This document shows positions 18,808 through 58,935 of a stretch of 64,000 nucleotides of DNA, one piece after another. Source of the DNA: Nitrospirota bacterium (GTDB lineage: Bacteria > Nitrospirota > Thermodesulfovibrionia > UBA6902); the NCBI GenBank assembly GCA_016234115.1, contig JACRHD010000017.1, positions 811-64,810 of the forward strand. The letters are read 5' to 3'. The translations under genes and the position numbers were made by a program. Position 1 is the first letter of the stretch; every line of letters begins with the position of its first letter. The notes below the pieces were generated by a model. That model saw only the letters and a list, made by a program, of their open reading frames with translations. It had not been told where the DNA came from and searched no databases.

Positions 18808-20472
18808 TCAGCGAATTATCTGCTTCCTGATTCTGAACAGCCTGATCAGCTTATCCGAACGACCTTCATAAAAAAGCTCGACTTCATCTGAATGCCTGTG
18901 CATTTCCATCAATTCATTGTACGACTCCCATTTGCCGAGGAACCTTTCGTCGATAACGATAAAGTCGACATTATTGATCCTGCCGAAACGTATCACATCA
19001 GCGCTGCTTGCATACGGCAGCATGGTAAATCTGGCGCCGCTGTAATAATTGACATAGGGTTTCGCGGCCATAACATTCAATTCTTCATATTCCGCCGGGA
19101 CCTTTTCCTTCAGGTAAAGCCCCGCCGCCTCGTGCTCTCCGGCCCTTTCAACTTTATCGAAACTTGAATATTTTAAATATATCAGGCTGCTCAGCGCCAG
19201 CACGGCAATCATGATGTGTTTAATATTTCTTCCGGCAAGCTGAAGGGCCCTGTTGTTCTCCAAACCGTAATAAGCGGTCAAGTCTGAAAAGACGTGCCGC
19301 GCATTGGGAAAACCGCCGCAGGAGAAAAATATCAGGAAGACCACGATAACAAGGGTCTGCTTTTCAATAATGATGAATATCGGGTAGATAAGAAAAAACA
19401 GCAATGGAAACATAATGAATATCAGCCTTGTTCTTTTCCTGAAAAGCTCTTTGTTGAAAAATGCGAAAAAGAAGGGCAGCGCAATCGGAATGAGGAGCTT
19501 GTTCAGGGTCTTGATTTCGCGCAGGACATTCTTCTGGTATCTTTTCGCAAAAGCGAGGGGGTCTTTGAAAATATAATCCTTCAACGACCGGTTCGCCTCC
19601 CTGTTCCACCCCTCCAACTGAGTTTTGTCCCCGGTCAGGGCAAACGCTTTCCTGTCATAGAGGTTGTCGGGGGCGTTGACTACTTCATGATATTCCGCTT
19701 CGTCGCTGAGCTCGCCGAGAAGAATGCTGATATTGGCCTTTCCGGTCGGGCTGAACTTTCCCGTATAATTCTTGAGAAACAGCATATACGGAAATATAAT
19801 TATTCCAAAGACCACGAAAATAGAAACGAGTTTAAGCAGGTATTTTCTGTTGAAAAAGAGCCTTTCGTTAAATACCCCGAACACCTGCAGCAACGGCAGC
19901 AATAAGAGGAACTGGCCTTCCGGGCGCGTGAGATAAGAAGCCGCAACAGATACCCCGAACAGCACAGATATAAAATAATTGTTCCTCCTCAACGATATCA
20001 GGAACAGGTAAATCGACAGCAGAAGGAAGAAATAAAACAGCACATCCGAATACGTATCAACGGAAACTATCAGTATGACGGGATACAGCGCGTAAACAAA
20101 CGCCGCAAACAGGCCGGATTCCTTATCGTACAGCTCCTTTCCCACAAAATATGAAAGGATGATCGTTATACTGCTGGAAACAAACGATACAAGTTTAGCT
20201 GAAACGAAGAGGTCTTTGACGGCCAGATTAAACAGGCCTATGAAAAAAGGATAGCCGGGTGGGAAAAACACGCCCATATTATAGTTCTCGCCGAAATTAT
20301 ATCTGCAATACTCTATCAGATTCTTCCCCAGCCGCGAGAAGGCAACGGTATCAAGTGCAAAAGCCGGGTCATTGAATTTGATTATTCTAACCGCGATCCC
20401 TAAAAGCAGGATGCATATCAATAATATATATTCTCTCCTTGAATTCATTTCCTTTCCTGTATGAATCGACAT
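18808..20472 (-). CDS. ArnT/PMT-like GT-C glycosyltransferase (GT39/GT83-like) membrane protein
   Basis: 554 aa. N-terminal TM bundle with a conserved early periplasmic loop, and a C-terminal soluble domain. Overall similar to 4-amino-arabinose/mannosyl-transferase-type enzymes. Confidence 0.55.
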   Translation of the reverse strand: MSIHTGKEMNSRREYILLICILLLGIAVRIIKFNDPAFALDTVAFSRLGKNLIEYCRYNFGENYNMGVFFPPGYPFFIGLFNLAVKDLFVSAKLVSFVSSSITIILSYFVGKELYDKESGLFAAFVYALYPVILIVSVDTYSDVLFYFFLLLSIYLFLISLRRNNYFISVLFGVSVAASYLTRPEGQFLLLLPLLQVFGVFNERLFFNRKYLLKLVSIFVVFGIIIFPYMLFLKNYTGKFSPTGKANISILLGELSDEAEYHEVVNAPDNLYDRKAFALTGDKTQLEGWNREANRSLKDYIFKDPLAFAKRYQKNVLREIKTLNKLLIPIALPFFFAFFNKELFRKRTRLIFIMFPLLFFLIYPIFIIIEKQTLVIVVFLIFFSCGGFPNARHVFSDLTAYYGLENNRALQLAGRNIKHIMIAVLALSSLIYLKYSSFDKVERAGEHEAAGLYLKEKVPAEYEELNVMAAKPYVNYYSGARFTMLPYASSADVIRFGRINNVDFIVIDERFLGKWESYNELMEMHRHSDEVELFYEGRSDKLIRLFRIRKQIIR

Positions 20473-20496: not shown

Positions 20497-21996
20497 TCAA
20501 GTTTCATTGTATTTTGCAATCAAAAGACGCCAGGGAATATCGTGATTGCTGATCGATTTCCAGATATAGACGATAAGCGCAACCAGCAATAAAAAATGGC
20601 GTCCGATATAAAGCCCATTGTAATCTAATAATAAATAGCCGACAGTCACTATTACGATAAATATAACGTCGAATTGCAACCCTTTTGCCAGGGTTATAAT
20701 CGACAGCCTCTTATGAATAATAAAAATACAAATTATATCTACCATGGAAAGGCAGAATGCCGTAGCCGAGGCGGCGCCTATCATTCCATATCGCGGCACC
20801 AATAATATATTCAGGATAATATTCAATGTCCCCCAGAATATATTAACCTTCATATAGACTTTGTGCTGGCCGGTCATTTGCAATAAAATACCGATCAAAC
20901 CGGAGCATGCTTTTATCATTTGCCCCATTATAAGAATCAGGAGCGCGGCATAGCCTGCCGCAAATTCAGGGCCGTAGAAATATTTCAGGATATATTTGCC
21001 CTCTATGGCAAGTATCAGAATGACCGGCATCGACATGCTCAAAATCCAGCGTGTGCTCTCACGGACGACCTTTTTTAATTCAGCATGGTCCCCGGAGGTA
21101 TGTATGGTTGATATCAGGGAAGGGATGACGGCGGTAAAGGCCATCATGGGAAAGTACACGAGAAGGACAAGTTTTGCCGCCACTCCGTATATCCCGACGA
21201 TTTCAGTGGATTTGTACATACCCAGTATCCATACATCGGCCTGGGTATAGAGCAGCACGCTCATGCTTGTAAATATTATTGTGTATGCCACGTCTATGAC
21301 TTTCCGCTTTTCACACTGTCCTCTGACCGGTCTTAATGAAGCTGTTCTTTTCCGGAGGAATCTGATTGAAACAATTACAGAAATGATTTCGCCGGCAGCA
21401 AAGGCAATGACCGCGTAACCGGGAGATGTCCCCTTAAGGGACAAGAGCAGAAAAACCACTATCTTGAAGGAGGGCGAAATTAATGATTCCGAAATCAGGG
21501 CCCTGAATGCATCTTTATATCCCCTCAATATTCCCCCGATCACGTCCCTTATTACCCATGCGGGGATTGCCAGGACCGCGACCGGCAACAACTTCAGCAG
21601 CCCCTCGGAGTGAAATATATTGACAGAAATGAACTTCGAGCAGGCCAGGACAAGGAGCATAAAAATTATCGAAACGAGGAAACAAAACCTGATGACAAAG
21701 GAAATAGTCCCCTTTAACCTTTCCCGATCATTCAGATCAGCATAAATGGGTATAAACTTCATCATGGTCTCTTCCATACCGAATTTTGCAAGCTGAACGG
21801 ATATTCTTATGACCGTCACGGCGAGTATGACTTCACCTATCCCGCCTGCGCCCAAAATCCGCGCAAGGAGGACCTGATTAAAAAACCCAAGGAGCGTATT
21901 GGATATCTTCAGGGCAAAGGCTATTGCCCCGCTCCTTGCTCCGACCGCTAAGTTATCATTCATACCGTCATGAATATCCGGGCCGTTATCAGCCAT
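20497..21996 (-). CDS. Wzx-like polysaccharide flippase (MOP/MATE superfamily, polysaccharide biosynthesis protein)
   Basis: 499 aa with ~12-14 TM helices. The N-terminal region …ISNTLLGFFNQVLLARILGAGGIGEV… is typical of the Wzx/RfbX family. Confidence 0.65.
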   Translation of the reverse strand: MADNGPDIHDGMNDNLAVGARSGAIAFALKISNTLLGFFNQVLLARILGAGGIGEVILAVTVIRISVQLAKFGMEETMMKFIPIYADLNDRERLKGTISFVIRFCFLVSIIFMLLVLACSKFISVNIFHSEGLLKLLPVAVLAIPAWVIRDVIGGILRGYKDAFRALISESLISPSFKIVVFLLLSLKGTSPGYAVIAFAAGEIISVIVSIRFLRKRTASLRPVRGQCEKRKVIDVAYTIIFTSMSVLLYTQADVWILGMYKSTEIVGIYGVAAKLVLLVYFPMMAFTAVIPSLISTIHTSGDHAELKKVVRESTRWILSMSMPVILILAIEGKYILKYFYGPEFAAGYAALLILIMGQMIKACSGLIGILLQMTGQHKVYMKVNIFWGTLNIILNILLVPRYGMIGAASATAFCLSMVDIICIFIIHKRLSIITLAKGLQFDVIFIVIVTVGYLLLDYNGLYIGRHFLLLVALIVYIWKSISNHDIPWRLLIAKYNET

Positions 21997-30551: not shown

Positions 30552-31214
30552 ATGACAAAAAAAAGATACATAGTTGTGATTATTTTAATTTCACTGACTC
30601 TTATTGCAAGTTATTCCATTCCAAGAAAACGTTATGCCGGAACAAACATTATTGCCGAATTGAAAATTCCCCGTTCGATTAATAATTGGTCCGGGGTAGA
30701 TGTTACCGACAGACTTGAGATCGGGGTTACGGAAGAAATATATAATTTTATAGGTGATGCAATTGCTTACGAGTATACAAATAAAGAAGGCAGGAAACTT
30801 CTTCTGATTATTCTGGACGCAGGCAATTTTCATCATCCCAATGTCTGTTTTACCAGCGCCGGGTTTGAAATCCGTGAACTTGAAGACACTGAATTTGCTT
30901 CTCCCTCCAATGCCTTCAAAGCCCATACGCTCCTCACAAAAAAGGGGAATGATAATTATTTAAGTTTTTACTGGATAAGCATTGATAATAAAATAGTCCA
31001 TGAGTGGATCGACCAGAAGATAAAACAGTTATATTTTTCCATGTTTAACAAGGGAAGAGTGGGCCTGATGATACGAATCGATATTCCCGCTAATGAAGCA
31101 GATATAGATCAGTCAATTCTGCTTGCAAAGCAATTTATCAGTGAGATAGGCCCGTTACTTGAGACCAGGCAGAGGAGCTTCATTTTTGGTATTGATTCCG
31201 GGGGCCAACTATAA
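30552..31214 (+). CDS. EpsI-like exosortase-associated protein (N-terminal TM anchor + periplasmic domain)
   Basis: 220 aa with a single N-terminal TM helix (IVVIILISLTLIASYSI) and a mixed alpha/beta domain. Position in the exosortase operon and size match the EpsI family. The family call is by context, not by a recognised motif. Confidence 0.45.
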   Translation: MTKKRYIVVIILISLTLIASYSIPRKRYAGTNIIAELKIPRSINNWSGVDVTDRLEIGVTEEIYNFIGDAIAYEYTNKEGRKLLLIILDAGNFHHPNVCFTSAGFEIRELEDTEFASPSNAFKAHTLLTKKGNDNYLSFYWISIDNKIVHEWIDQKIKQLYFSMFNKGRVGLMIRIDIPANEADIDQSILLAKQFISEIGPLLETRQRSFIFGIDSGGQL

Positions 31215-32218
31215 TGAAGAAAGCAAAAACGTTACATGAAAGGTTTGGTTATTTAAAAAGACATTTCTATTCTTTCGCCCCTCATCTGACTATCCGGAAA
31301 CTCTCAAACCTTCTCCTCAATGAGATTGAGATGCGTTTATCTGTCAGTAATCCAAGGAGTCTGCCTCCTTATATAAAGGTGGAACCCAGTATTTTATGCC
31401 AACTACGATGCAAAGGATGCATACAAAGGGACCCGGAATTTAAGAAGCAGTATATCGGAACCAAACCTATCAATCTCGGTGAATTTGAAAAAATCATAGA
31501 TCCTCTCGCCGAAACACTCCTGGGTATCAGCCTGAGTTTTTTCGGCGAGCCGCTTCTGAATAAAGATATTGTCCAGATGATCAAATTCGCTCATGGTAAA
31601 AATATTGCTGTCGGTTTCCCCACAAATTTCTCGTTTAATTTCACCGACGATCAAATAAATCAGCTTGCCGGGTCAGGACTTGATTCTTTATCGGTTTCAT
31701 TAGACGGGGCTTCTGAAGAAACATACCTGAGATATCGTGTGGGCGGTAATTTCAATCAGGTGCTCAAAAATGTTAAATCATTATCGGTAGCCAAAAAGAA
31801 ACTCGGACTTCGGCGTCCGAGAATCATCTGGAAATTCGTTATATTCGATTACAATGAGCATGAAGTCGACATAGTCAGAAACACTTATGCTTCAAGGGGA
31901 TTCGATTCCTACGAGTTTGTCTATAACGTTTCGAGTGACTACTCGAAAAGTCAGACACAATCATACAGAAAAGAACTCTGGAAAAATAAAAAACCCTGCT
32001 ACTGGCTCTGGAATACAATGATCATAAGATGGGACGGAAATATTCACCCTTGCTGCCGAACGGAACAATTCAATTTGGGAAATGCCTTAAAGGAGAATAT
32101 CAAAGACGTCTGGCGGGGGAGAAAGTATTACGCATTAAGAAGAGGGTTTACTAAAAAAGATTACGGGGAGAAATTACATCCGAACTGCAGAAAGTGCATG
32201 GAATCAAATTATTTTTGA
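31214..32218 (+). CDS. Radical SAM enzyme with SPASM domain
   Basis: CX3CX2C (ILCQLRCKGC) and a C-terminal Cys cluster (CYWLWNTMIIRWDGNIHPCC…NCRKC). Its start overlaps the EpsI-like stop by 1 nt. Confidence 0.75.
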   Translation: MKKAKTLHERFGYLKRHFYSFAPHLTIRKLSNLLLNEIEMRLSVSNPRSLPPYIKVEPSILCQLRCKGCIQRDPEFKKQYIGTKPINLGEFEKIIDPLAETLLGISLSFFGEPLLNKDIVQMIKFAHGKNIAVGFPTNFSFNFTDDQINQLAGSGLDSLSVSLDGASEETYLRYRVGGNFNQVLKNVKSLSVAKKKLGLRRPRIIWKFVIFDYNEHEVDIVRNTYASRGFDSYEFVYNVSSDYSKSQTQSYRKELWKNKKPCYWLWNTMIIRWDGNIHPCCRTEQFNLGNALKENIKDVWRGRKYYALRRGFTKKDYGEKLHPNCRKCMESNYF

Positions 32219-33391: not shown

Positions 33392-34429
33392 CTAAGAGAT
33401 ATCGGATATCTTCTCACTTTTAACATCCGGGAAGCACAGGTTCGGTTCCATGTTAAGCAATACACGGATTTTATTCTTCATAATCCATTTGACCGGGATC
33501 CCCTTATGCTTCTTCATCACAGGGGCGGCGCTGCCGACCATCCAGCACTGCTTGTCACACGTTTTTACAATGTCCCTGACCCGTTGCGCCTGTCCGCTGT
33601 TCCATATCTCATCAAATGACTCATCTTTTAAATTTCCCATCGGGACTTTTATATTCATCCCGTTACAGGCAAGGATATCGCCGCTGGGGTCCAAGAAACA
33701 CGATTCTTCGCCCATCTCGCACTTCAGAAATCTTTTACCGCCATATATATAATTCATCAGACCGTAATTGAAGTATGCCCTGAACCATTTCTTAACGGAC
33801 CTCGACTTTAGAAGTTCAGCAATAAGCTTTGCAAATTCATTACAGACAGCATCCTTGTTTTCTATTCGATTATCCAGTTTATGAAAATAATGTGAATTAT
33901 GAAGTGTAGCTGTAGCAAATTCATACCCGAGCGCATCGGAAAGCTCATACAACGGCAGAAGGTCCTTGCAATTCATGTCCTGTACCGTCATACCGAACCC
34001 TATGTCCTTCATGCCCATCTTTCTCAATGAAAGAAGCGTCCTTAGTGTTCTGTCGAAGCCTCTCGGTATTTTTCTGATGGTATCGTTGCTTTCCTGAAGT
34101 CCCTCTGTGCTTATTCTGATTCCGAGATCCGGATATTTCTCACATAACTTAATTATCCTCTCAGTGAAAAATCCGTTTGTACTTATAACAATTCGATCAG
34201 TTTTAGGACGAACCGCTTCGATAATTTCCTCTATATCCTGTCTTATGAACGGCTCCCCGCCGGTTATATTTATAAATCTCAATCCGGAGGGTATTTTCTC
34301 GATATCTTTAATCGTTATCTCATCCGCGGCTTTTGTAGGATAATGCCAGACATCGCACATATTACATTTCGCATTACATCTGTATGTAAGGATGACACAT
34401 ATTTCTTTTGGATATGATATCATAGGCAT
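33392..34429 (-). CDS. Radical SAM enzyme with SPASM domain
   Basis: CX3CX2C (YRCNAKCNMC), GGEP SAM motif, and a C-terminal SPASM Cys cluster (CEMGEESCFLDPSGDILACNGMN…CDKQC). Confidence 0.75.
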   Translation of the reverse strand: MPMISYPKEICVILTYRCNAKCNMCDVWHYPTKAADEITIKDIEKIPSGLRFINITGGEPFIRQDIEEIIEAVRPKTDRIVISTNGFFTERIIKLCEKYPDLGIRISTEGLQESNDTIRKIPRGFDRTLRTLLSLRKMGMKDIGFGMTVQDMNCKDLLPLYELSDALGYEFATATLHNSHYFHKLDNRIENKDAVCNEFAKLIAELLKSRSVKKWFRAYFNYGLMNYIYGGKRFLKCEMGEESCFLDPSGDILACNGMNIKVPMGNLKDESFDEIWNSGQAQRVRDIVKTCDKQCWMVGSAAPVMKKHKGIPVKWIMKNKIRVLLNMEPNLCFPDVKSEKISDIS

Positions 34430-34578: not shown

Positions 34579-35661
34579 CTAAAATTCTATTTTCTTCTTG
34601 GACATCTTTCTAAAGGCAGAATACAATTCTTTCATGGAACGCTTGGTCTGGCAGGTAGTCAAACATAATCTTTTACACTTCAGAATAATATCGCGACCTT
34701 TTTCTGCATCATCTGAATGCCAGATTTCCTCAGGAGAGTTTTTTGTCAAATTGCCGGCCCATATGTTAATGTTGGGACACAGATAAACATCGCCTTCGGG
34801 ATGGACGTGGAAGTTACGGACCCCCACAAGACATCTCCCGCGCGGTACCTCGTCGGTCGTGGCCCCTTTGAAATAATCCTTCCAGCCTGCGATATCGCTC
34901 TCTGCTGATAAAACAGGATAACCTTCCTTCTTCATATCCAAAAGCCGCCTCGATACCTTCTCAACTTTCTCAATATCCCTGATCCAGAAATCCTCCCACT
35001 GCGAGCCGCCGAATTTGAATAACGGTTGAAAATTAACACCCTCTAGTTTTTTATCTTTAGCAAATTTTACAATCCCTTCAAGTTCATCGATATTCACGTT
35101 CAACACTGTCGGTTTCAGTATTATCCGGATTTTCTTATTCTGTCTCTTCATTTCGTAAAGCATGCTTTCCAGGTTTTCCATTACCTTTACAAAAAGGCCC
35201 CTGGTCCCTCTGCTGTAATCATGAGTCTCCGGTTTTATCCCATCAAGAGATATATTTACATTGAAAGGAGATGCGCCGACAAACTTCTGCATTCCTCCAT
35301 GCGGGGTCAGCCCCAAATTAGTGGTGATTCCATATGACAATCCGATCGAAGCGCAGTGCTCGAATATCCCGACGACATCTTTTCTGATAAAAGGCTCTCC
35401 TCCGGAAAATTGGACATGCGCATGTCTATGCCACTTCTTCAGTTGCGACAGCCATCTGGTCCATTCGACAGTCGTCATTTCAGAATGGTCCTTACGTCTC
35501 CAATGATTACACATCAGACATTTTGCATTGCATTTGTACGTAAGCATGGTGGGAATAGTTGCAGGCCTGCAAAGATTGATCCCGGTACCAAGGTAAAGAT
35601 TGCTCGATATCACATTTTTCAGATACCCGACGCTGTAGTTTATCAACTTACTGTCTACCAT
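34579..35661 (-). CDS. Radical SAM enzyme with SPASM domain
   Basis: CX3CX2C (YKCNAKCLMC), GGEP, and C-terminal CLVGVRNFHVHPEGDVYLCPN…CKRLCLTTC. It is a paralog of 33392-34429. Confidence 0.75.
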   Translation of the reverse strand: MVDSKLINYSVGYLKNVISSNLYLGTGINLCRPATIPTMLTYKCNAKCLMCNHWRRKDHSEMTTVEWTRWLSQLKKWHRHAHVQFSGGEPFIRKDVVGIFEHCASIGLSYGITTNLGLTPHGGMQKFVGASPFNVNISLDGIKPETHDYSRGTRGLFVKVMENLESMLYEMKRQNKKIRIILKPTVLNVNIDELEGIVKFAKDKKLEGVNFQPLFKFGGSQWEDFWIRDIEKVEKVSRRLLDMKKEGYPVLSAESDIAGWKDYFKGATTDEVPRGRCLVGVRNFHVHPEGDVYLCPNINIWAGNLTKNSPEEIWHSDDAEKGRDIILKCKRLCLTTCQTKRSMKELYSAFRKMSKKKIEF

Positions 35662-35753: not shown

Positions 35754-37151
35754 TCAGGCGGATGCCTCTGCCCACGATGCATTTGTAAGTGCTTTATCTT
35801 CGCAGCCTAATGCCATTCCGATAAAGCCGGTGTAAACAAGAATCATTGATGAAAGGTTTATTCCGTTGCTGGCAGAATACATTATTAATACTGTCGTGCA
35901 AATTATCAACCCGGAATATAAACACTTCATTTCATATGATGTCGCCTGATGTCTTGCCGTATCAAGGATGACAGAAATGAAAATCAGGAAAACAATAAAG
36001 AGACCTGTTCCCATGACTCCGAGCTCCGCCAGAATCTGGGGCCAAAATTGATCTATGCCTCCCCATTTTTCAGCATATGTTTTGGCTATTTCAAAAAAAG
36101 AATACTCACTATAGACATGTGATTTTGTCTTTATTGAAACAACCCCCCCGTACATGCCGGGACCAACGCCCCAGAAAGGTTTGTCACTCCATATCTCTAT
36201 CCCTTTGGTCTTGGCATACTGCCTGAAAGAAATGTATGTGGCATCCTCAATCTTCGTTTCCTTGACGTCACCGGTTAATTCCATTTCAGGCAAATCGGGT
36301 TTCCATACATTTTTCAGTTCCATATCACTTGTATATAAAAATAAATTAACAATCATAATGACAATTGCCGCAGGCGTCGACAAAATCAGGACCCATCTCC
36401 TGCTTTTAAATATCTGCATCCCGGCAAACACCACAAGACCTATATAAGCTATTCTTGATCCGGTAAATATCACAGCAATCACAAGGACCAGCAGGACTGC
36501 GGGATTGACTTTTTCCTTAATATTTTTATAAATAACAATGACAAGCACCAGAAAGAAACTGAAAATGTTGGGGTTGAACATAAGTGAAGGAGTTCTGTAT
36601 AGGCCGAATCTCCATGATCCTTCCGGCATGAGATTCTGTGCGAGAACATATATGCTCTTGTCAAGTATGTCTTTATGTAAAACATAATATGAAGTCATTG
36701 CCCATACTTCCTGAAAAATAGCTATTGCCGCAAGGAACACCGTAACAATCAACAAAGATTTAAATGCCTTTTTCATATCCATAATATTGTTACAGAAAGC
36801 GGCATAAATGAATATGGCAAGGAAATTTTTCATATAATCAAATATCCCGAGTGCCGTTACCTTCAGAGGATTCCCGTTGATTAATCCGGAAACGGTTCCT
36901 GCAAAACACAAAAGCAGAATTGAGAGAAGCAGTATATTAAATGATTGAGCAAAACTCCTTTTCTCTTTCATAAGCTTAACAAGCGACAACGGTAAAATTA
37001 TTATGATTGTTATTTCGTCAAGGTATTTCAGGTACGTTATTAAGTCCGGAATATCATAATTCCACAAGGATACAGTTTCGGTTATCGTTTGCTGAAACGG
37101 CATGAAAAATAGAAGTCCGATCAGCCACCTTCTTATCAGTTTGTCGTACAT
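35754..37151 (-). CDS. Wzy-type polymerase / O-antigen-ligase-like polytopic membrane protein
   Basis: 465 aa with ~11 TM helices and one large periplasmic loop. It sits in the GT-rich operon, the typical position for Wzy. Confidence 0.55.
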   Translation of the reverse strand: MYDKLIRRWLIGLLFFMPFQQTITETVSLWNYDIPDLITYLKYLDEITIIIILPLSLVKLMKEKRSFAQSFNILLLSILLLCFAGTVSGLINGNPLKVTALGIFDYMKNFLAIFIYAAFCNNIMDMKKAFKSLLIVTVFLAAIAIFQEVWAMTSYYVLHKDILDKSIYVLAQNLMPEGSWRFGLYRTPSLMFNPNIFSFFLVLVIVIYKNIKEKVNPAVLLVLVIAVIFTGSRIAYIGLVVFAGMQIFKSRRWVLILSTPAAIVIMIVNLFLYTSDMELKNVWKPDLPEMELTGDVKETKIEDATYISFRQYAKTKGIEIWSDKPFWGVGPGMYGGVVSIKTKSHVYSEYSFFEIAKTYAEKWGGIDQFWPQILAELGVMGTGLFIVFLIFISVILDTARHQATSYEMKCLYSGLIICTTVLIMYSASNGINLSSMILVYTGFIGMALGCEDKALTNASWAEASA

Positions 37152-45612: not shown

Positions 45613-47145
45613 TTACGGTCTGCCTGCAAGTAATAATTTTTCCCTGACTTTCCCGAGGATCATTTTATCTTCTTCAGTTATGCAGAAATAATAATATGCC
45701 AGTGAACCGGATGACATGAAAAGCAATGTCCCGATAGCAATCCTCCACACATGCCAGACATCAATCATATTCAATGTGAAATAAGTGATCAGATACGCGG
45801 GAATGAATGCGCCTATGATTTTAATAAAATCCATATTAAACGGCTGCAATCCCCTCTTTATCTTTAATTGCAACACTAAAATACAATTCATAATACTGCC
45901 CGAGAGCGTACTGGCGACCGCCGCCCCTACTATATCCAGGTTCATCTCTTTTATAAAAAAATAATTCAGGGCCGTGCTCAAAACCAATGCTATAAAAGTA
46001 TTCATCAGGACCAGCTTCTGGTGCCCCATTGACACCAGAACATAGCCGACCCCGCCCAGGGAAGCTATTATCAGCTTGCCCGTACATAATATCAGCAGCG
46101 GCGTCGAGGCGGACATATATTCCTCCCCAAAAAATAAAAGGATGTCTTTGTCTAACAAAAAAACGAGTCCGACCAGCGTTAAGCTGACGGAAAATATCCA
46201 CTTGGTTATTATCTGATACAGATATCCGATGCCCGAATAGTCCTTTTCAGCGAATTTTTCGGCAACTACCGGCATCAAAATCTCATTGAAGGCATAGAAG
46301 ACAAAGCTGATAAGTATTGCTATATTCAGCGCTACGGCATAAATACCGACTGTTTCCGCCGGGCAAAAATAGCTCAGCATGAAAACATCCACCGTCCCGG
46401 TCAAAAACGCAATTAAATGATGGAAGAGAAGCGGCACCGAAAAATCATAAAGTTCTTTCCGGGTGACGCCCATTTCCTGACCGGGCTTTTTAAACATGTC
46501 GCCGAATGTTAATGAAAAGTTCATCGTCCACTTAAGAGACATCAGAAGCAATATTAAACTTATGACCTCGATCAGAACAATTGCCATGAGAACCAGGCGG
46601 AAATTCAGACCCACAAAATACATAATGCCCAGAACGCAAAAAAGGACCACGGAATACACGATTTGTTTGAAAAAAACATTATACTTGAGCTGCTTTGCCC
46701 CCTGATTGGCAGACATCAGCAGTTGATTGACGGTTGAAAGCGGCACCAGGAATGAAAATATCCTCAGCACATCGGCAAGCCCGGGTTTATTAAATATCTC
46801 TATTGCCACATAATCGCTGAGAGCAAACATCAGGAAACCGAAAACAATACTGCAGACGGTCCCGATTTTCAATACATATGTCAGCAAGGCCTTTGCCTCC
46901 ATATTGCTCCGCCTCAGGCAACCCGGGATATATCTCACCAGCCCCACATCCAGCCCCATCTTAGTAACAGTGAATAAAGACTGTTGACACCTGAAACCCA
47001 ATTGATAGAGTCCCAGCATCAACGGACCCAACACATTTGCCAGCAGGATGCCGTTGACGATCTTGAACAGTTGCGCGATAATTTCTCCTGCGTATCGCCA
47101 TCCCGCCTGTTTAGCTATGATTGATAAATTCTTTTTGTCTTCCAC
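45613..47145 (-). CDS. Wzx-type polysaccharide flippase (MOP superfamily)
   Basis: 510 aa with ~14 TM helices. It begins with GTG at 47145 (VEDKKNLSIIAKQAGWRYAGEIIAQLFKIV…). The start lies inside the 118-bp repeat copy A and overlaps, in another frame, a remnant of the Wzy-like C-terminus. Confidence 0.7.
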   Translation of the reverse strand: MEDKKNLSIIAKQAGWRYAGEIIAQLFKIVNGILLANVLGPLMLGLYQLGFRCQQSLFTVTKMGLDVGLVRYIPGCLRRSNMEAKALLTYVLKIGTVCSIVFGFLMFALSDYVAIEIFNKPGLADVLRIFSFLVPLSTVNQLLMSANQGAKQLKYNVFFKQIVYSVVLFCVLGIMYFVGLNFRLVLMAIVLIEVISLILLLMSLKWTMNFSLTFGDMFKKPGQEMGVTRKELYDFSVPLLFHHLIAFLTGTVDVFMLSYFCPAETVGIYAVALNIAILISFVFYAFNEILMPVVAEKFAEKDYSGIGYLYQIITKWIFSVSLTLVGLVFLLDKDILLFFGEEYMSASTPLLILCTGKLIIASLGGVGYVLVSMGHQKLVLMNTFIALVLSTALNYFFIKEMNLDIVGAAVASTLSGSIMNCILVLQLKIKRGLQPFNMDFIKIIGAFIPAYLITYFTLNMIDVWHVWRIAIGTLLFMSSGSLAYYYFCITEEDKMILGKVREKLLLAGRP

Positions 47146-47188
47146 CCGTCATACTCCCGACTCATACCGTGATTTTCAGTTTCACTGA
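47071..47188. repeat. 118-bp direct repeat, copy A (Wzy-end/Wzx-start junction)
   Basis: ~97% identical (4 mismatches) to 49355-49472, seen directly. It contains the Wzx GTG start plus a 27-codon remnant ORF (MQSISETENHGMSREYDGWKTKRIYQS) matching the C-terminus of the Wzy-like protein. Confidence 0.85.
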
Positions 47189-47230
47189 TACTCTGCATGG
47201 TCGTTCTTGCCTGTTCTTTTCTCGTTCCCA

Positions 47231-49234
47231 TTATTTTTTAATTTTCTCATTCGCCAGCCTGAGGTTATTTTTCACAAGCTTTCTCAGCCTCTGCCCAATC
47301 ATGCGCTCATCCGCAAATATATCATGACTCTCTTCAGGATCATCTCTGAGGTTGAAAAGAACTGTTTTCTCTTCATCGGGGTAATAAACCAGTTTATAGT
47401 CCCCGTCCCACACCGCTATTGTCCCTTTTGTAATCGGCGCCCCAAAGGACCGGTTCTCCATCAGTTCCATTGAAAATACCGGCCGCGAATCGAGAAAAGT
47501 ACCGAGGAATATCGGAGCCAGAGACCTCCCTTCCATCCATGAAGGCGCCTTTAATCCCGCAAACTCCAGCACTGTAGGAGCAATATCGATCTGGGAGACC
47601 GGCAGGTCAACTACTTTTCCCTGTTCTATACCGGGGAATTTAATGATAAGAGGTATGCGCACCTTCTGTTCGTTCAGGTGCTTACCGGTATGCCCAAGAT
47701 AATTATGAGAAAAACTTTCTCCATGGTCTGATGTGAGTATGATTATCGTGTTCGACATATCCAGTGTCTCTTCGAGTCGTTTTATCAACTTCTCAAATTC
47801 ATTATCACAATACATAAGAAACTCATCATAGCGCTTTCTCATTATGTCCACCTTGGGCTGGTCCTCAGGATCATACGGCCCCTGTTCAATCAACTTAGAG
47901 GGCTTATCCTTATCTCCCAAAACACCTTTATACGGCAGGGAGGGCAAATATGGGTCATGAGGCGGAAGAGCAAAAAGCAATGCGAAAAAGGGTTCTTTTA
48001 ACTTCAATTGCTTCTGCTTATTATTCGGCCTGTCTCCTTCAGACGACGCAAGGCTTAAAAAACGGTCGTATACGAGCCGGGGGGGGAAAGTTGTCGTCTG
48101 ATCCGCGGCCGGCAGTTCTTGCTCCTGCTGCAACGTCCCTCTCTTCTGTATGACTGCCTTAACAATATTTTCAATATTAAGGGGGTGCAATGCAAAAATC
48201 TCTCTCGTAATCGGCCTCCTTACAAAAAATTTGGAAAATTCGGTCGCCGGCCCGCTCCCCAACAACATATTATTGAACCTGCTTGAATAATCTCTGAGTA
48301 AAAAAGAGTCTTCTATTCCCAACGTTCTTGGATTTGCAAATTTATTCTGCACAAACGCATAATTACTGTATCCGTTTTCCATTAAAATTCTCGTCAGGTT
48401 GTCTTTGTACCGTATCTTCCGGGGATTATTGTAAGCGAAGTACCACAACCTGTGTGTCCAGACATTCTGCCCGGTCATCAAACTCATCGTAGCAGGCGTC
48501 GTCCAGTGGGCTGCGGAGTACACCCTGTTGAACACCACAGCTTCCTCTGCCCAACGCGTAATAAAAGGCGTTGTAGGACGTTCATATCCATATACCTGCA
48601 TATCCAGCGCGGTCAATGCATCCATAATTACAATAATAATATTGGGTTTTTTCCCTGTTGGAATAATATTGCTGTTCTGCGCATATTCATCCATTAATTC
48701 GGGGGGGGGCTTGTGAAGGATATTCATGGCTGATAACGGCATTGCGGCAACGAATAATCCGGCAAAAAGCCATACCAGCGGAGTTATGTGCATATTGAAT
48801 TTGCTGATTGATTGTCCGGCATGTTTGCGAAATACCCATGTAACAAATCCTGTAAAGACACCCAAAAATATCAGAACAGTATGAGGACGCAATCCGGTAA
48901 TTTTTTCTATCGATATATCTTTAAGGAAAGCATCTCTTAAAAAGAATACGATAAGAAAAAAGACAGCCCAAAACAATACGTGTTCTAATTGTACGGCAGA
49001 TCGCCTTAAGATCGATCTGAAAAATAACGATGAAATCATCCAGAAAACGAATGCAAAAGCCATCATCGGAATTGTCCAGAGGATAAAGGCCAGTGAGATA
49101 CGCGGTATAATGTCTAAAAATCTAATATAATATGAATATCCGTCCCATTTGTGAAAAAACACATTAAGAAACGAGAGAGAGGAAAAAACAAATACCGCTC
49201 TCAATAATATGATCAGAAACCTTTTAAAAGTCAT
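47231..49234 (-). CDS. LtaS/phosphoglycerol-transferase-like member of the sulfatase (alkaline-phosphatase) superfamily with N-terminal 5-6 TM domain
   Basis: 667 aa with an N-terminal TM bundle. The catalytic domain has VIMDALTALDM…, and the active site is HWTTPATMSLMTG with Thr in place of the Cys/Ser-x-P-x-R of true sulfatases. It contains C9 and C8 runs in-frame. Confidence 0.75.
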   Translation of the reverse strand: MTFKRFLIILLRAVFVFSSLSFLNVFFHKWDGYSYYIRFLDIIPRISLAFILWTIPMMAFAFVFWMISSLFFRSILRRSAVQLEHVLFWAVFFLIVFFLRDAFLKDISIEKITGLRPHTVLIFLGVFTGFVTWVFRKHAGQSISKFNMHITPLVWLFAGLFVAAMPLSAMNILHKPPPELMDEYAQNSNIIPTGKKPNIIIVIMDALTALDMQVYGYERPTTPFITRWAEEAVVFNRVYSAAHWTTPATMSLMTGQNVWTHRLWYFAYNNPRKIRYKDNLTRILMENGYSNYAFVQNKFANPRTLGIEDSFLLRDYSSRFNNMLLGSGPATEFSKFFVRRPITREIFALHPLNIENIVKAVIQKRGTLQQEQELPAADQTTTFPPRLVYDRFLSLASSEGDRPNNKQKQLKLKEPFFALLFALPPHDPYLPSLPYKGVLGDKDKPSKLIEQGPYDPEDQPKVDIMRKRYDEFLMYCDNEFEKLIKRLEETLDMSNTIIILTSDHGESFSHNYLGHTGKHLNEQKVRIPLIIKFPGIEQGKVVDLPVSQIDIAPTVLEFAGLKAPSWMEGRSLAPIFLGTFLDSRPVFSMELMENRSFGAPITKGTIAVWDGDYKLVYYPDEEKTVLFNLRDDPEESHDIFADERMIGQRLRKLVKNNLRLANEKIKK
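48079..48086. repeat. G8 (coding-strand C8) homopolymer inside the LtaS-like gene
   Basis: Seen directly. It encodes …TTFPPRL…. Confidence 0.9.
48701..48709. repeat. G9 (coding-strand C9) homopolymer inside the LtaS-like gene
   Basis: Seen directly. It encodes …HKPPPELMD…. Confidence 0.9.
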
Positions 49235-49354
49235 TGTTATCGTTTTATTACTCGACCGGTCGACTTATCCGCAGGCCTGTCGTCATCCATTGCTCAAATG
49301 TGATCATATTTTCAGCGCTGCGGCAAACCGATGCGGTTGAACTGCCTTATATAA

Positions 49355-49472
49355 TTGCGCGATAATTTCCCCCGCGTATCGCCATCCCGCCTTTTTAGCT
49401 ATGATTGATAAATTCTTTTTGTCTTCCACCCGTCATACTCCCGACTCATACCGTGATTTTCAGTTTCGCTGA
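49355..49472. repeat. 118-bp direct repeat, copy B
   Basis: It contains the true 3' end and stop of the Wzy-like gene (…MSREYDGWKTKRIYQS*). Past the repeat, a decayed remnant of the Wzx 5' end (SIIAKKAGWRYAGEIIAQLYKAVQPH…*) runs into the 49235-49398 spacer. Confidence 0.85.
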
Positions 49473-50985
49473 CCATCGCCTTCTTTCTCTGATACACGCC
49501 TACGACAATCCCGGACATCATGTAGAAAACGGCGTTCGGAAAATAAAAAAGCTTCATCTCGATAAACTGGAAATTTGCAAAATAATTTATAAAAATCGCC
49601 CAATAAATTATCATGAATTTTTTGCTCAGGAAGCCGTCGTCAGGCAGCAAATCATATAATTTTTTGCCGATTCTCAGGATCGCAATCAGGATAAACAGGG
49701 TAAATCCGAGACCGATCAGTCCGAGTTCGACCAGGGTGCTTGTCCAGGTATCATGGGCCCTGCTTCCTCCTTCATAATAGGGAATCCCTTCTATTTTAGT
49801 TTCCTGAATATACTTGGGGCTTACGTCCTGAAAGGTATTGAATCCGAAACCGAATATCGGTTTTTCAAGAAACATTTTTCCCACCGCAAAATATAAAGTC
49901 AGTCTGTGATAGACGGGATCTATCGCAAACGTTCGGTCTGAAATCATTTTCGATGTTTCGTAATGTTGCATGTATAAACTTGCCGTGTCAGTCTTTATTT
50001 GCTTCAGGCTGAACTGGGTATATATCAATATCACTGAGGCGAGAACGCATATTACGGCCGCCTTTCTTGTTTGCGGGAAGAAGACCGGAACAGTCAGTAA
50101 CGACAGGATAAAACCTACCCAGCACGATCTGGTAAGTGTTAATAACACGCCTGTCGCGATAAGCATCATGCCGACTGCAAGGAAAACTCTCGCCTTTCTG
50201 TTTTTACTTTGGAAAAAAAGATACATTGAATAGAAAAACGCCATGGAAAGGGCCGTTCCGTTGAGCGCACCGTTGAGAAAAGGCCCCCTTGCCCTGCCCT
50301 GGTGAATGCCTAATTGCAAATTCGTGATATACGACGGGAATACAAGGGAGTTTATGCCATAGTATTCACATATCGCCGTGAACCCAAGATAAAAGCCCAT
50401 CGCGGCAAAAAAAACAAATATTTTTTTTATCTTACTTTCGTCATCCAGCAGATTTTTGGCCAGGAAGAAGATAGAAAAAGGAATTGCATAGCCGGTCAAA
50501 AGTATCTTGAGCATAAGCCCGTCTTTTTCACTGTAAAGAGTACCGGCAACCATCATTGAGAAAAAAACGTACAGGCAAAATAAAAGCATGGCCGCTTCTA
50601 TTGTTATATCGCTGAAGTTAATTCTTCTCTGTTTCAAACCTGCTTCCAGTAAAAAAGTTGAAAAGGCCATCATCCATATCAATCTCTGGGGTTCTATATC
50701 GGGAAGCACAGGTATGTTGATCTTTCCAACATATTCAAATACCACTAAAGCAAGCCATATCCACATCAGATCGACCAGATAACGTCTTGAGATGATCATT
50801 AAAACAGGAGCAATAACAATACATGCGAATAAAATCAGCAGCAATGGGGGAGCGAAAAAATTGTAACTCGCGAAAATGCCCAGGAGTGCTATCGTCAGCA
50901 GAAGAACGAACTTTGCGGTCTGAATGCGCCTGAAATACGCAACCAGACAAAACAGAGCAATCGTTATGATCATTAACAATCCCAT
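49399..50985 (-). CDS. O-antigen-ligase/Wzy_C-family polytopic membrane protein
   Basis: 528 aa with ~12 TM helices, a large periplasmic loop, and a C-terminal cytoplasmic tail that ends inside repeat copy B. Confidence 0.6.
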   Translation of the reverse strand: MGLLMIITIALFCLVAYFRRIQTAKFVLLLTIALLGIFASYNFFAPPLLLILFACIVIAPVLMIISRRYLVDLMWIWLALVVFEYVGKINIPVLPDIEPQRLIWMMAFSTFLLEAGLKQRRINFSDITIEAAMLLFCLYVFFSMMVAGTLYSEKDGLMLKILLTGYAIPFSIFFLAKNLLDDESKIKKIFVFFAAMGFYLGFTAICEYYGINSLVFPSYITNLQLGIHQGRARGPFLNGALNGTALSMAFFYSMYLFFQSKNRKARVFLAVGMMLIATGVLLTLTRSCWVGFILSLLTVPVFFPQTRKAAVICVLASVILIYTQFSLKQIKTDTASLYMQHYETSKMISDRTFAIDPVYHRLTLYFAVGKMFLEKPIFGFGFNTFQDVSPKYIQETKIEGIPYYEGGSRAHDTWTSTLVELGLIGLGFTLFILIAILRIGKKLYDLLPDDGFLSKKFMIIYWAIFINYFANFQFIEMKLFYFPNAVFYMMSGIVVGVYQRKKAMVSETENHGMSREYDGWKTKRIYQS

Positions 50986-51237: not shown

Positions 51238-52170
51238 TCAAACATCGCTGCGAAGGCGCATGAAATATTCACATGTCTTCTTTAATCCGGCTTCAAGTGA
51301 GGTCTTATATTCCCAGTGAAGAACGTCATTTGCCTTTGCGGATGAAATAACGCTTCTTCTCTGTTCACCCTCCTTGGCAGGAGCATATTTCCCGGCAACG
51401 GACGAATTTAAAATATTCTTCAGGCATTCAAAAAGCCGATTGACGGACGTTTCGATTCCGGTGCCTATATTAAATGCCCCTTCAGACACATTATTCCGTA
51501 AGGCCGCAATATTTGCGTCCACGACGTCCCCGACAAAAACAAAATCCCTCGTCTGTTCGCCGTCGCCGTTGATTACCGGCTGTTCGCCGCTCAGGAGCTT
51601 CCGGATAAAAATGGCCACAACACCTGCCTCCCCGTGCGGGTCCTGGCGCGGTCCATATACGTTTGCATATCTAAGTACTGTGTAATCAAGACCCAAAACA
51701 GTCCTAAAGTAATAAAGATAATGCTCCGCAACGAGTTTTGTAATGCCATAGGGGCTTATCGGCTTCAAGGGGTGCGTTTCAGGCGCCGGGAAGATTTCCT
51801 GCTCACCGTAAACAGCGCCTCCGGAAGAGGCAAAAACCACCTTCCTCACTTTATGGACCAAACAATTCTGCAAAATATTTAATGTCCCAAGGACGTTTAT
51901 TTTCGCATCAAAAACGGGGTCAGCAACTGATTTGCGCACGTCGATCTGGGCGGCATAATGACTGACATACTCAGGTTTTTCGTCGTGAAAAACGGACTCA
52001 AGTCTCCGGTCCTGGATATCAAGCCTGTAAAACCTGGCCTTTTTATTGATATTCCTTTCGCTGCCTGATGAAAGGTCGTCAACTATTACTACTTCGCAGC
52101 CTTCATCAATCAGCCTGTCAACAATATTTGAACCGATAAATCCTGCGCCTCCCGTCACCAATACTTTCAT
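51238..52170 (-). CDS. NAD-dependent epimerase/dehydratase (UDP-sugar 4-epimerase-like SDR)
   Basis: MKVLVTGGAGFIGSNIVDRL, S…YxxxK (YGITKLVAE). Length is 310 aa. Confidence 0.8.
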   Translation of the reverse strand: MKVLVTGGAGFIGSNIVDRLIDEGCEVVIVDDLSSGSERNINKKARFYRLDIQDRRLESVFHDEKPEYVSHYAAQIDVRKSVADPVFDAKINVLGTLNILQNCLVHKVRKVVFASSGGAVYGEQEIFPAPETHPLKPISPYGITKLVAEHYLYYFRTVLGLDYTVLRYANVYGPRQDPHGEAGVVAIFIRKLLSGEQPVINGDGEQTRDFVFVGDVVDANIAALRNNVSEGAFNIGTGIETSVNRLFECLKNILNSSVAGKYAPAKEGEQRRSVISSAKANDVLHWEYKTSLEAGLKKTCEYFMRLRSDV

Positions 52171-52193: not shown

Positions 52194-53780
52194 CTATGTC
52201 ATCTTGTAAATAAACCGTGGAATTACATATGTGCGGTTATTGACGATAATTCCAATTATATTTGTCTTGTTCTTCAATAAGGGATCAACGGCCCGCTGGA
52301 AAATAATACGCCTGGTCCTGCCTTCGTTGATTACAACGGCAACCCCCTCGGTATAAGCGGCGAGGACCGTGGCGTCCGTAAAATTCAGCAGGTCCGGACT
52401 GCTGACGAAAATCATGCCGAACAGTTCCTTGGCGCCGCTCATCAATTTTGACATACCTGAAGATTCCAGGTACGCCACAGGGTTCAAGGACGTGTTGCCG
52501 GAAGGCAATACATACAAGCCCGGGCTTATTTCAACGATCGCATCATTCAATCCGGCCTTTCCTTCGAGAACATCAACAATACCCGGAGTGTTCTGTATGC
52601 CCAGAACGCCCGATATTGATGAGGACCTTAAATTAGCGTCGATAATAAGCACCTTATCGCCGTGATGAGCAGCGAGATAAGAGCCTATGTTACAAATGAT
52701 AAATGCCGTTTCCCGGCAGCCTTCCGTATCGGCGACAAGGATGGATTTTAAATTTTTGTTCCTGAATGACAAAAAAATGTTTTCCGACAAATTCCTGTAA
52801 GATACGACATAGCTTTCATCACTCTGCGGCCCGTCATTTCCAAGCAGCAAATCCTTTGATTTAGTTTTCGGAATGGTGCCCAGAACGGAGATATTAAGAG
52901 ACCTTTCCACATCATGGGGCGACCTGAAGGTGTTGTCGGTATACTGAAAAACAAAAACCAGTATGACGGAAAATGCCATGCTGCCGAAAAATCCCAGGGC
53001 AAGAAACAATCCGGTTGACTGTCCAGCAACCGGCACGGCTTCTCTTGCCTGTTCCATTATCTTCACACTGGCCGGCCCGATCGCCTCCATGTCGGGAAGT
53101 ATCTTGCCGTCAAGAGACCTGAAAATCACCTGGGAGAAATTCCTGAATTGAACTACCTTGGCGTGCTTCTCTCCGTATTTCATCTGGAAATCCGCGATCT
53201 GCTCGTCAAGGTCATAAATCAGGTACGACCGGCTTACCGCGTTGGCCTGCAAAACCGCCATATCGGGATCAAAGTCACTGACGGTTATAGAAAACATATT
53301 CGTATCTTTGACCTGATCAACGCTGATACTGCCTTTCAATTTTTCGACAGCCGATTGAAACATGAGAGACTTCTTTTCCTCGGCAGACATTGTATTGTAT
53401 TTTTGCATAAACCTGTCCAGACGCTTCCTGAGAATTTTTGCTTTCGCAGGGGAGGTGAATTTTATTTCATGATCGGGAGGTATCTCATAAAGTTTCAACG
53501 CCTCGACGACCCTTTCAACAACGGCGTTAGAGCTGACAAGCTCCTGATGATCAGTGGTCGGGTTTCTGAAAAAGCCGACGGTTTCGTAGTATTCCGCCGA
53601 TGCTTTCTTCATCGCCTTGACACTCATAATGACAGTCGCCCTGAATGTAGGCGTATAAAACAGCGAGCTGATGTAGATAGGCGTCATAACAGCGATAGGC
53701 ACTATAACAAATACAAGCTTATGATGAAAGACTGCCTTTAGAAAGTCCCTCAGAGTAATTGTCTTTGTGTAAGACATCAT
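52194..53780 (-). CDS. Wzc/Wzz-like polysaccharide co-polymerase with a C-terminal BY-kinase-like domain that has a degenerate Walker A
   Basis: An N-terminal TM helix, a periplasmic Wzz-like coiled region, a second TM helix, then an ATPase-like domain. The domain reads KSILVADTEGCRETAF…VLIIDANLRSS…IFVSSPD. The canonical P-loop G-E-G-K-S/T is replaced by T-E-G-C-R-E-T, while the Walker A' (DANLR) is retained. Confidence 0.7.
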   Translation of the reverse strand: MMSYTKTITLRDFLKAVFHHKLVFVIVPIAVMTPIYISSLFYTPTFRATVIMSVKAMKKASAEYYETVGFFRNPTTDHQELVSSNAVVERVVEALKLYEIPPDHEIKFTSPAKAKILRKRLDRFMQKYNTMSAEEKKSLMFQSAVEKLKGSISVDQVKDTNMFSITVSDFDPDMAVLQANAVSRSYLIYDLDEQIADFQMKYGEKHAKVVQFRNFSQVIFRSLDGKILPDMEAIGPASVKIMEQAREAVPVAGQSTGLFLALGFFGSMAFSVILVFVFQYTDNTFRSPHDVERSLNISVLGTIPKTKSKDLLLGNDGPQSDESYVVSYRNLSENIFLSFRNKNLKSILVADTEGCRETAFIICNIGSYLAAHHGDKVLIIDANLRSSSISGVLGIQNTPGIVDVLEGKAGLNDAIVEISPGLYVLPSGNTSLNPVAYLESSGMSKLMSGAKELFGMIFVSSPDLLNFTDATVLAAYTEGVAVVINEGRTRRIIFQRAVDPLLKNKTNIIGIIVNNRTYVIPRFIYKMT

Positions 53781-58302: not shown

Positions 58303-58935
58303 ATGGTCAGGGTCAAAATCTGCGGCATAACTAATGTTGAAGACGCGCTGTCCGCAATCGACTGCGGCGCTGATGCCCTGGGTTTTGTCTTTTATCCCAA
58401 AAGTCCCCGTTCAGTGGCCCCTGACATCGCAAGGAAGATCATCTCATCGCTTCCACCTTATGTAACAAATGTCGGCGTCTTCGTTGATAAGGAAAAAAAG
58501 GACCTTGAGGAGATCGTTTCTTATACCGGCGTAGACGTGATCCAGCTTCACGGCTCCGAGCCTCCCGAATATTGCAGCACAAACCGGAAAATCGTCAAGG
58601 CCATCAGGGTAAAGGAACTTTCGGACCTCGCGCCCCTGGGCCGCTATAAGGCAGTCTCGGCATTTCTTCTTGACACATACGCCCCGGGCGAAATCGGAGG
58701 GACCGGCAGGATTTTCAACTGGGAGATCGCGATTGAAGCAAAAAAGCTGGGGCGGGTAATCCTTGCCGGCGGACTTACGCCCGAGAATATTGAAGAAGCG
58801 ATACGGTTCGTTCAACCCTACGGCGTAGACGTAGCGTCCGGGGTCGAAGGCAGAGAGAAAGGGAAAAAAGACCATAGGAAACTGAGATCTTTCATCGAAA
58901 AAGCGAGAAATGCGTCCTTAATGCTCCCTTCATGA
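58303..58935 (+). CDS. trpF: N-(5'-phosphoribosyl)anthranilate isomerase
   Basis: MVRVKICGITNVEDALSAIDCGADALGFVFYPKSPR… is the canonical PRAI N-terminus. Length is 210 aa. Confidence 0.85.
   Translation: MVRVKICGITNVEDALSAIDCGADALGFVFYPKSPRSVAPDIARKIISSLPPYVTNVGVFVDKEKKDLEEIVSYTGVDVIQLHGSEPPEYCSTNRKIVKAIRVKELSDLAPLGRYKAVSAFLLDTYAPGEIGGTGRIFNWEIAIEAKKLGRVILAGGLTPENIEEAIRFVQPYGVDVASGVEGREKGKKDHRKLRSFIEKARNASLMLPS

Follow-up and report, generated by a model that had tools for sequence, protein, structure and literature searches.

In the 64-kb window analysed here, which comes from a contig of the metagenome-assembled genome (MAG) of an uncultured Nitrospirota bacterium and whose coordinates are used throughout, a gene for a membrane-anchored sulfatase-fold enzyme lies between the wzy-like gene and the wzx gene of an exopolysaccharide locus, and the junction of those two genes is present on both sides of it as a pair of long direct repeats. 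All three genes are on the minus strand. The wzy-like gene (49399..50985) encodes a protein of 528 amino acids belonging to the Wzy_C/O-antigen polymerase/ligase family and ends inside one repeat copy, which we call copy B (49355..49472). The inserted gene (47231..49234) encodes a protein of 667 amino acids of the alkaline-phosphatase superfamily. The wzx flippase gene (45613..47145), which encodes 510 amino acids and has a GTG start codon, begins inside the other repeat copy, copy A (47071..47188). Wzy scores 50.4 bits against PF04932, a family that covers polymerases and ligases (cut-off 31.7), and Wzx scores 74.2 bits against PF01943 (Polysacc_synt) and 46.8 bits against PF13440, both above the gathering threshold. 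Wzy is 100% identical to NCBI entry MBI5739901.1 and Wzx is identical to MBI5739899.1.

Base-by-base comparison of 47071-47188 with 49355-49472 gave 114 identical positions out of 118 (96.6%) in direct orientation, just as a preliminary description of this DNA had claimed, with 2284 bp separating the start of one copy from the start of the other. The four mismatches fall, in copy A numbering, at 47086, 47089, 47109 and 47184, and the longest block free of mismatches is 74 bp (47110-47183). Three of these differences are synonymous in the frame that matters, and the remaining one is a Q13K change in the wzx frame. A repeat search of the region from 44 to 53 kb returned a slightly wider family (47062-47188 and 49346-49472, direct) as the sole strong one, and in the whole window the pair is the sole repeat of at least 45 bp, direct or inverted. 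A match of this kind would be expected at random about 1e-53 times. The repeat has no internal symmetry and consists of coding sequence of the neighbouring genes. To judge from the two copies, their divergence of 3.4% (4/118) shows that the arrangement has persisted.

Read on the coding strand, each copy contains the last 23 wzy codons followed by TAG (...SETENHGMSREYDGWKTKRIYQS*), a Shine-Dalgarno sequence, the GTG start codon and the first 25 codons of wzx (MEDKKNLSIIAKQAGWRYAGEIIAQ). The Shine-Dalgarno sequence of wzx is GGGAG, located 8 nt ahead of the GTG (in copy A at 47154-47158 and 47143-47145, respectively), and the wzy stop codon lies 31 nt downstream of the GTG in a different frame, so that the two reading frames overlap by 31 nt; the out-of-frame overlap in both copies had already been proposed and holds. 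The copies differ in which half is in use. In copy B the wzy 3' end is functional and is followed by a non-functional wzx Shine-Dalgarno sequence, GTG and first 25 codons, whereas copy A combines a non-functional Wzy tail with the functional Shine-Dalgarno sequence, GTG and first 25 codons of wzx. This assignment of the real wzy end to copy B and of the real wzx start to copy A agrees with the open reading frames (ORFs) and with the alignments of homologues: the closest homologues of Wzx (52-53% identity) share its start position (MREKNLS...), and among 14 homologues of Wzy the conserved core ends in ...GIVVGVYQR, with tails beyond it that vary from 3 to 33 amino acids. Since the length of the tail varies in this way among homologues, the duplicated part of Wzy appears to be dispensable. 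The Wzy remnant in copy A is somewhat shorter than first described, with 23 codons and a stop (24 amino acids by tblastn) in place of 27 codons.

Both edges of the repeat are sharp and lie within dispensable sequence, namely the non-conserved Wzy tail on one side and the region past wzx codon 25 on the other. Past the repeat on the wzx side, identity falls from 97% to about 67% across about 25 nt with a 1-nt indel (p ~0.03). This degenerate patch, TCAAC[G/C]GCATC, is shifted by 1 nt and is weakly like wzx codons 26-33; it may be either microhomology or a decayed extension of the repeat. On the wzy side no extension of the repeat was seen (p ~0.2). The preliminary description placed a decayed duplicate of roughly the first 30 wzx codons after copy B. 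A wzx stub does exist there, but its first 25 codons belong to the repeat itself and beyond them only the patch of about 25 nt is found. No structured RNA in the repeat or insert was matched in Rfam. Around the start of wzx the predicted fold has only modest stability (z = -2.25), and the Shine-Dalgarno sequence is not clearly sequestered.

Each half of the duplicated junction that is no longer in use is part of a small ORF. On the upstream side, a 41-codon ORF (49304..49429, minus strand; MEDKKNLSIIAKKAGWRYAGEIIAQLYKAV...) has the same Shine-Dalgarno sequence and GTG as the real wzx and is a remnant of its 5' end, matching Wzx over 31 amino acids at 84% identity by tblastn; it terminates 70 nt ahead of the ATG of the sulfatase-like gene, within the 120-nt spacer upstream of that gene (49235..49354, minus strand). 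On the downstream side, the ATG of a 38-codon ORF (47115..47231, minus strand) overlaps the TAA of the sulfatase-like gene (TAATG). This ORF runs in frame into the duplicated Wzy tail, to which it is 96% identical over 24 amino acids by tblastn, and ends 31 nt inside wzx. It may form a bridge that carries translation over from the inserted gene into wzx, in which case it would recreate across the wzx start the ribosome flow of the original junction. In the 120-nt upstream and 43-nt downstream spacers no promoter-like or terminator-like site was detected on the coding strand, and the number of promoter-like matches is near the shuffle expectation. We therefore rejected a cassette with its own promoter or terminator, and the inserted gene is expected to be co-transcribed with its neighbours.

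The inserted protein carries the Pfam domains Sulfatase PF00884 (3e-42) and SGSH_C, preceded by about five hydrophobic segments in residues 1-175 according to a crude hydropathy scan. The public version of the protein, MBI5739900.1 (520 amino acids), matches it at 100% and starts 147 codons too late, dropping the membrane domain that is kept in all full-length homologues. In place of the sulfatase motif C/S-x-P-x-R the protein has SAAHW-T245-TPAT. An alignment of 116 family members places T245 at the sulfatase formylglycine position, which is occupied by threonine in 114 of them and by serine in the other two; the family motif reads SNW-T-T-P-x-x-MS-x-MTGQR, the arginine of C/S-x-P-x-R is absent, and D205, D503 and H504 are invariant or nearly so. 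The nearest solved structures, whether sought by the single sequence or by the family profile, are all S1 sulfatases (down to 6e-46 with the profile), and the best 60 PDB matches contain no LtaS. All NCBIfam models stay below their cut-offs, the LtaS model NF053595 giving 35.2 bits against 970 and EptA about 30 against 561.

LtaS, EptA, OpgB and BcsG are membrane-anchored transferases of phospho-substituents. With LtaS, EptA/MCR, OpgB and BcsG the inserted protein shares a PF00884-type domain with threonine at the nucleophile position, conserved Asp/His metal ligands and a setting of glycan modification, and its putative N-terminal transmembrane helices, with the domain then extracytoplasmic, would give it a matching architecture. 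The similarity to LtaS/EptA-type transferases is limited to the superfamily level, however, and the catalytic domain together with SGSH_C is nearer to the S1 sulfatases. With the S1 formylglycine sulfatases, which give the best sequence matches, the protein has the same two-domain catalytic module in common, and it differs from them by the T-T-P-A-T motif and by the added N-terminal membrane domain. We thus rejected membership of the LtaS family on the score of 35.2 bits against 970, and membership of the S1 formylglycine sulfatases on the replacement of C/S-x-P-x-R by T-T-P-A-T, without the arginine. The protein had first been called LtaS-like, a name borne out by the PF00884 domain, the threonine at the nucleophile position and the roughly five putative N-terminal helices but contradicted by a model score far below the cut-off and by its S1 sulfatase neighbours in the PDB; it is valid loosely, for architecture and superfamily. 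The threonine-nucleophile sulfatase-like family to which the protein belongs is large and has no characterised member. The inserted enzyme probably works at the periplasmic face, where it would add a substituent to the polymer or the lipid-linked repeat unit, or edit one.

The composition of the inserted gene (GC content 0.43; GC content at third codon positions, GC3, 0.47) and its codon usage, whose distance is among the lowest of the locus, are indistinguishable from those of its neighbours, and a foreign origin on grounds of composition was rejected. Its closest homologues occur in tandem arrays of two to five paralogues in other Nitrospirota MAGs. These multi-paralogue arrays and the native composition make a source within the genome or lineage plausible. 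The arrays at 2867-10064 of L017, 712-4724 of L019 and 1-11956 of L020 adjoin GT2, YdjC, LPG_synthase_TM and Phosphodiest genes.

The preliminary description had proposed a comparison with related genomes. The nearest sequences in the protein collection have at most 47-53% amino-acid identity, and in four of the related loci (L001, L002, L006 and L015) wzy is directly followed by wzx, which is the cassette-free arrangement. Locus L015 (GCA_004196275.1) has the closest Wzy (47%), a gap of 10 nt between wzy and wzx, and no sulfatase-like gene; its order is porin, Bac_transf (65%), Wza, Wzc, epimerase (73%), Wzy, Wzx, CapK (61%) and glycosyltransferase (61%), and by gene content and order it is the window's backbone minus the insert. 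In L001 and L002 (Wzx 52-53%, Wzy 40-42%) the gaps between wzy and wzx are 51 and 15 nt. Locus L006 has the order epimerase, methyltransferase, wzy, wzx and an unrelated soluble sulfatase. Other genes stand between wzy and wzx in L016 and L008, and in L003, which is otherwise syntenic, a sulfatase-like gene of the same family (45%) lies directly upstream of a different wzx. The gene that follows wzx in L001 and L002 was rejected as an orthologue of the inserted gene, the similarity being at the superfamily level only (E = 0.02). On these gene orders, direct adjacency of wzy and wzx is the commonest state in the locus family and the space from the epimerase to wzx is a variable slot; a gene between wzy and wzx together with a duplicated junction is, by the same comparison, unique among the retrieved loci.

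Exact-protein look-ups of Wzy, the sulfatase-like protein and P0001 returned no other contig, a scan of genome contigs with Wzx alone returned no relatives, and an exact 28-mer of the repeat core had 0 matches in metagenome contigs. A metagenome scan with the sulfatase-family profile gave 80 loci, of which only L021 was a true family member, and none adjoined wzy or wzx. The variable slot carries, in syntenic loci, an NHL-repeat protein, methyltransferases, an NTase/HepT toxin-antitoxin pair, or a frame-split UDP-GlcNAc 2-epimerase with a GT4 gene (L003 7854-9782; L006 9104-9985; L016 6857-7688 and 9758-10639; L008 6586-8954), and to judge from this cargo it looks like a hot spot of gene gain and loss.

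Taken together, our data make it likely that the structure is a real scar of a non-transposon rearrangement in a Wzx/Wzy-dependent operon, passive but prone to recombination. Both copies join a wzy tail to a wzx start, and the coupled junction must therefore predate the event. That this junction was split by an insertion with duplication is supported by the gene orders, because relatives have wzy directly followed by wzx and L015 has the backbone without the gene; the earlier proposal of an insertion into an ancestral wzy-wzx junction is borne out by the junction in both copies and by these four relatives. Originally, wzy would have run 31 nt into wzx, with the ribosome-binding site of wzx inside the wzy tail. 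A single illegitimate event would then have put 2166 bp, holding one gene, into the overlap and duplicated 118 bp of it, so that copy B would supply the end of wzy and copy A the Shine-Dalgarno sequence, start codon and N-terminus of wzx. It may have come about by template switching or when a staggered break was repaired, and the patch on the wzx side would fit a microhomology-assisted joint. As wzy and wzx overlap, only an event that duplicates the overlap leaves both genes intact, and the seemingly designed look of the scar follows from the fact that the overlap had to be duplicated for both genes to be kept.

Several observations weigh against this account. The cassette-free state is seen in distant relatives only, at about 47-53% amino-acid identity, and L003 complicates the history of the inserted gene, for a gene of the same family beside wzx in that locus implies that the gene may be an old resident moved locally and not an import. 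The contig belongs to a short-read MAG, whose assembly supplies the two novel junctions. The bridge ORF, finally, could be fortuitous, a rough post hoc estimate putting its chance occurrence at 1-3%.

The two copies offer a passive substrate on which homologous recombination or replication slippage could act. A crossover between them would loop out a circle of 2284 bp and leave an intact wzy-wzx operon minus the modifying enzyme, and unequal exchange would amplify the inserted gene. We simulated the crossover at all 119 positions and found Wzy unchanged in every product and Wzx either unchanged or carrying Q13K, so that the predicted deletion of the gene with restoration of the wzy-wzx junction is mechanically sound. 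The 74-bp perfect block exceeds minimal processing segments quoted by the authors of a recent study of Salmonella, where values of 23-27 bp and 44-90 bp are given (PMC12074656). On the precedent of that study, excision of the inserted gene is plausible.

That study describes high-frequency, reversible loss of wzy under phage pressure in Salmonella Typhimurium (PLoS Genet 2025, PMC12074656). In DT8/DT30, wzy lies between two identical direct repeats of 113 bp, and about 1 in 500 cells in culture has lost the 2558-bp unit; a circular form was detected and reversion occurred in co-culture. Excision requires one repeat, no recombinase has been assigned to it, and RecA-type recombination was proposed (PMC12074656). 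The two cases share a polysaccharide gene in a unit of about 2.3-2.6 kb between direct repeats of about 115 bp that lack internal symmetry, and the window likewise has direct repeats of at least about 100 bp around a polysaccharide-pathway gene within a Wza/Wzc/Wzy/Wzx locus. They differ in the repeats, which in Salmonella are identical and intergenic (nucA-wzy and wzy-thrS) and here are 96.6% identical and consist of a duplicated coding overlap. They also differ in cargo, which in Salmonella is the polymerase itself and here an accessory sulfatase-fold enzyme whose excision would rejoin polymerase and flippase. Excision, circle and reversion are demonstrated in Salmonella, whereas in our locus excision would be a prediction from sequence. 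In the group 1 capsule operon of Vibrio vulnificus, wzb is deleted between flanking repeat regions to give a locked variant (PMC7247339). This is again a gene between direct repeats in a Wza/Wzb/Wzc-type operon, but the repeats are arrays of 8-mers, compared to the unique 118-bp duplication here, and loss of wzb does away with the capsule, while excision in our locus would spare the core pathway.

Other histories could have left the same structure. The sulfatase-like gene may already have stood next to the junction, either just downstream of wzx or upstream of wzy. A local tandem duplication spanning both, resolved by random loss of one copy of each, would have exchanged their order, with the 118-bp copies and the wzx 5' stub as its remains. 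An alkaline-phosphatase-superfamily gene lies directly downstream of wzx in L001, L002, L006 and L016, a gene of the same family stands beside wzx in L003, the composition of the gene matches that of the locus, and the wzx 5' stub after copy B would be debris of such an event. This route needs at least three events, compared to one for direct insertion, and we saw no debris of a second copy: the spacer between wzx and capK is 16 nt, and the 252-nt spacer between the epimerase gene and wzy has no similarity to the flanks of the cassette. Moreover, the downstream neighbours in L001 and L006 are not orthologues (at most 25% identity, or similarity at the superfamily level only), and we consider this history unlikely, although it is the strongest of the alternatives. 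Less probable still is an older and originally longer duplication, whose 118-bp core was kept alike by gene conversion as its edges decayed. The abrupt drop in identity from 97% to about 67% on the wzx side would fit it, and the differences between the copies, three out of four of them synonymous, look filtered. The extension nevertheless reaches only marginal significance on the wzx side and has no counterpart on the wzy side (the p values given above), and the patch can equally be the microhomology of an illegitimate joint.

The source of the contig raises the matter of an assembly artefact, either a chimera of strain variants formed through a shared junction or a collapsed tandem array, for which the short-read origin and a repeat of read or k-mer length could be held responsible. 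Artefactual duplications are normally identical, however, and these copies differ at four positions; all reading frames are intact; and both novel junctions, that of stub and cassette and that of cassette and wzy tail, are unique, each of them implying by itself a fragment of duplicated junction beside the gene. We consider an artefact very improbable. Target-site duplications are typically 2-15 bp long, and 118 bp is far beyond those known. This bears on the idea of a site-specific element, be it a transposon that made a long target-site duplication or else a mini-island or cassette bounded by att-like repeats, to which a single-gene insert between direct repeats might point. With transposon insertions and integron cassettes the locus shares an inserted gene between direct repeats of the target, but their duplication is a few bp, and here there is no transposase, integrase or attC-like palindrome. 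The insert holds a single, non-transposase ORF without terminal inverted repeats, and the repeat lacks internal symmetry. On these grounds we rejected insertion of a transposable element, and a site-specific element of any kind seems the remotest of the explanations, even though an att-like mechanism was considered also by the Salmonella authors (PMC12074656). A further alternative concerns the purpose of the scar and not its making. The repeats could be a selected presence/absence or copy-number switch, by which the population is kept mixed for a polymer-decorating enzyme, for example against phages or grazers, with copies regained from neighbours or from the circle. The geometry is near-identical to that of the Salmonella Typhimurium wzy locus (PMC12074656), the wzb deletion of Vibrio vulnificus provides a second case (PMC7247339), and excision would be scarless for both essential neighbours. 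Yet no conspecific contig was present in any collection searched, no recombinase gene lies nearby, and the divergence of 4/118 speaks against exchange frequent enough to homogenise the copies; given active mismatch repair, it would also reduce recombination. The excised circle has no replication function, and loss would therefore be one-way within a cell. A switch in this sense is doubtful, on a par with the older duplication, and we give slightly less credence to the fuller proposal that the duplicated overlap is a maintained architecture, in which the gene would be scarlessly excisable and re-integrable, the circle, with its one copy of the junction, could recombine into any wzy-wzx junction and the bridge ORF would keep wzx coupled in translation. 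If true, such a maintained module would show the principle of reversible excision seen for Salmonella wzy at work on accessory genes for decoration and in an uncultured environmental phylum.

Polysaccharide loci in which direct repeats enclose a gene are of a known kind; new here are the environmental host and the neat duplication of a junction at which two genes overlap. On the reading we favour, the locus shows in clean and natural form how a new gene enters a tight operon between two overlapping genes, where the duplicate of the overlap both preserves the expression signals and creates a built-in substrate for deletion and amplification. It can also serve as a test case of whether repeat-mediated heterogeneity of the Salmonella type acts on polysaccharide-decorating enzymes in environmental bacteria, and it flags a large uncharacterised family of membrane-anchored, threonine-nucleophile sulfatase-fold proteins that is common and multi-copy in the glycan loci of Nitrospirota.

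The three genes are part of a wider region, from about 29 to 58 kb, that forms one large exopolysaccharide locus including Wza, an initiating transferase, a porin and an EpsI-like protein. Upstream of the wzy-like gene on the minus strand are genes for an NAD-dependent epimerase (51238-52170) and a Wzc-like protein (52194-53780), and downstream of wzx, on the same strand, follow a CapK-like ligase, a GT1 glycosyltransferase and a deacetylase. The EpsI-like DUF3485 protein is encoded at 30552-31214 on the plus strand, and its presence suggests that the region may belong to an exosortase/PEP-CTERM-type system. A second Wzy_C gene lies at 35754-37151 (minus strand). Further away, at 20497-21996 (minus strand), is another flippase gene, of Wzx/MurJ-like type, whose product has 24% identity to the Wzx described above, with a PMT_2 glycosyltransferase gene adjoining it (18808-20472, minus strand); the window therefore encodes parts of more than one polysaccharide pathway. 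Three radical-SAM/SPASM genes (31214-32218 on the plus strand, 33392-34429 and 34579-35661 on the minus strand) are also found in the locus. They recall anaerobic sulfatase-maturating enzymes, but the sulfatase-like protein is without the C/S-x-P-x-R maturation motif. At its edge L003 has an APS-kinase gene (1-392), and polymers of that locus type may, on this gene content, be sulfated; the matching edge of the window showed no such gene, the porin gene being followed there by trpF (58303-58935).

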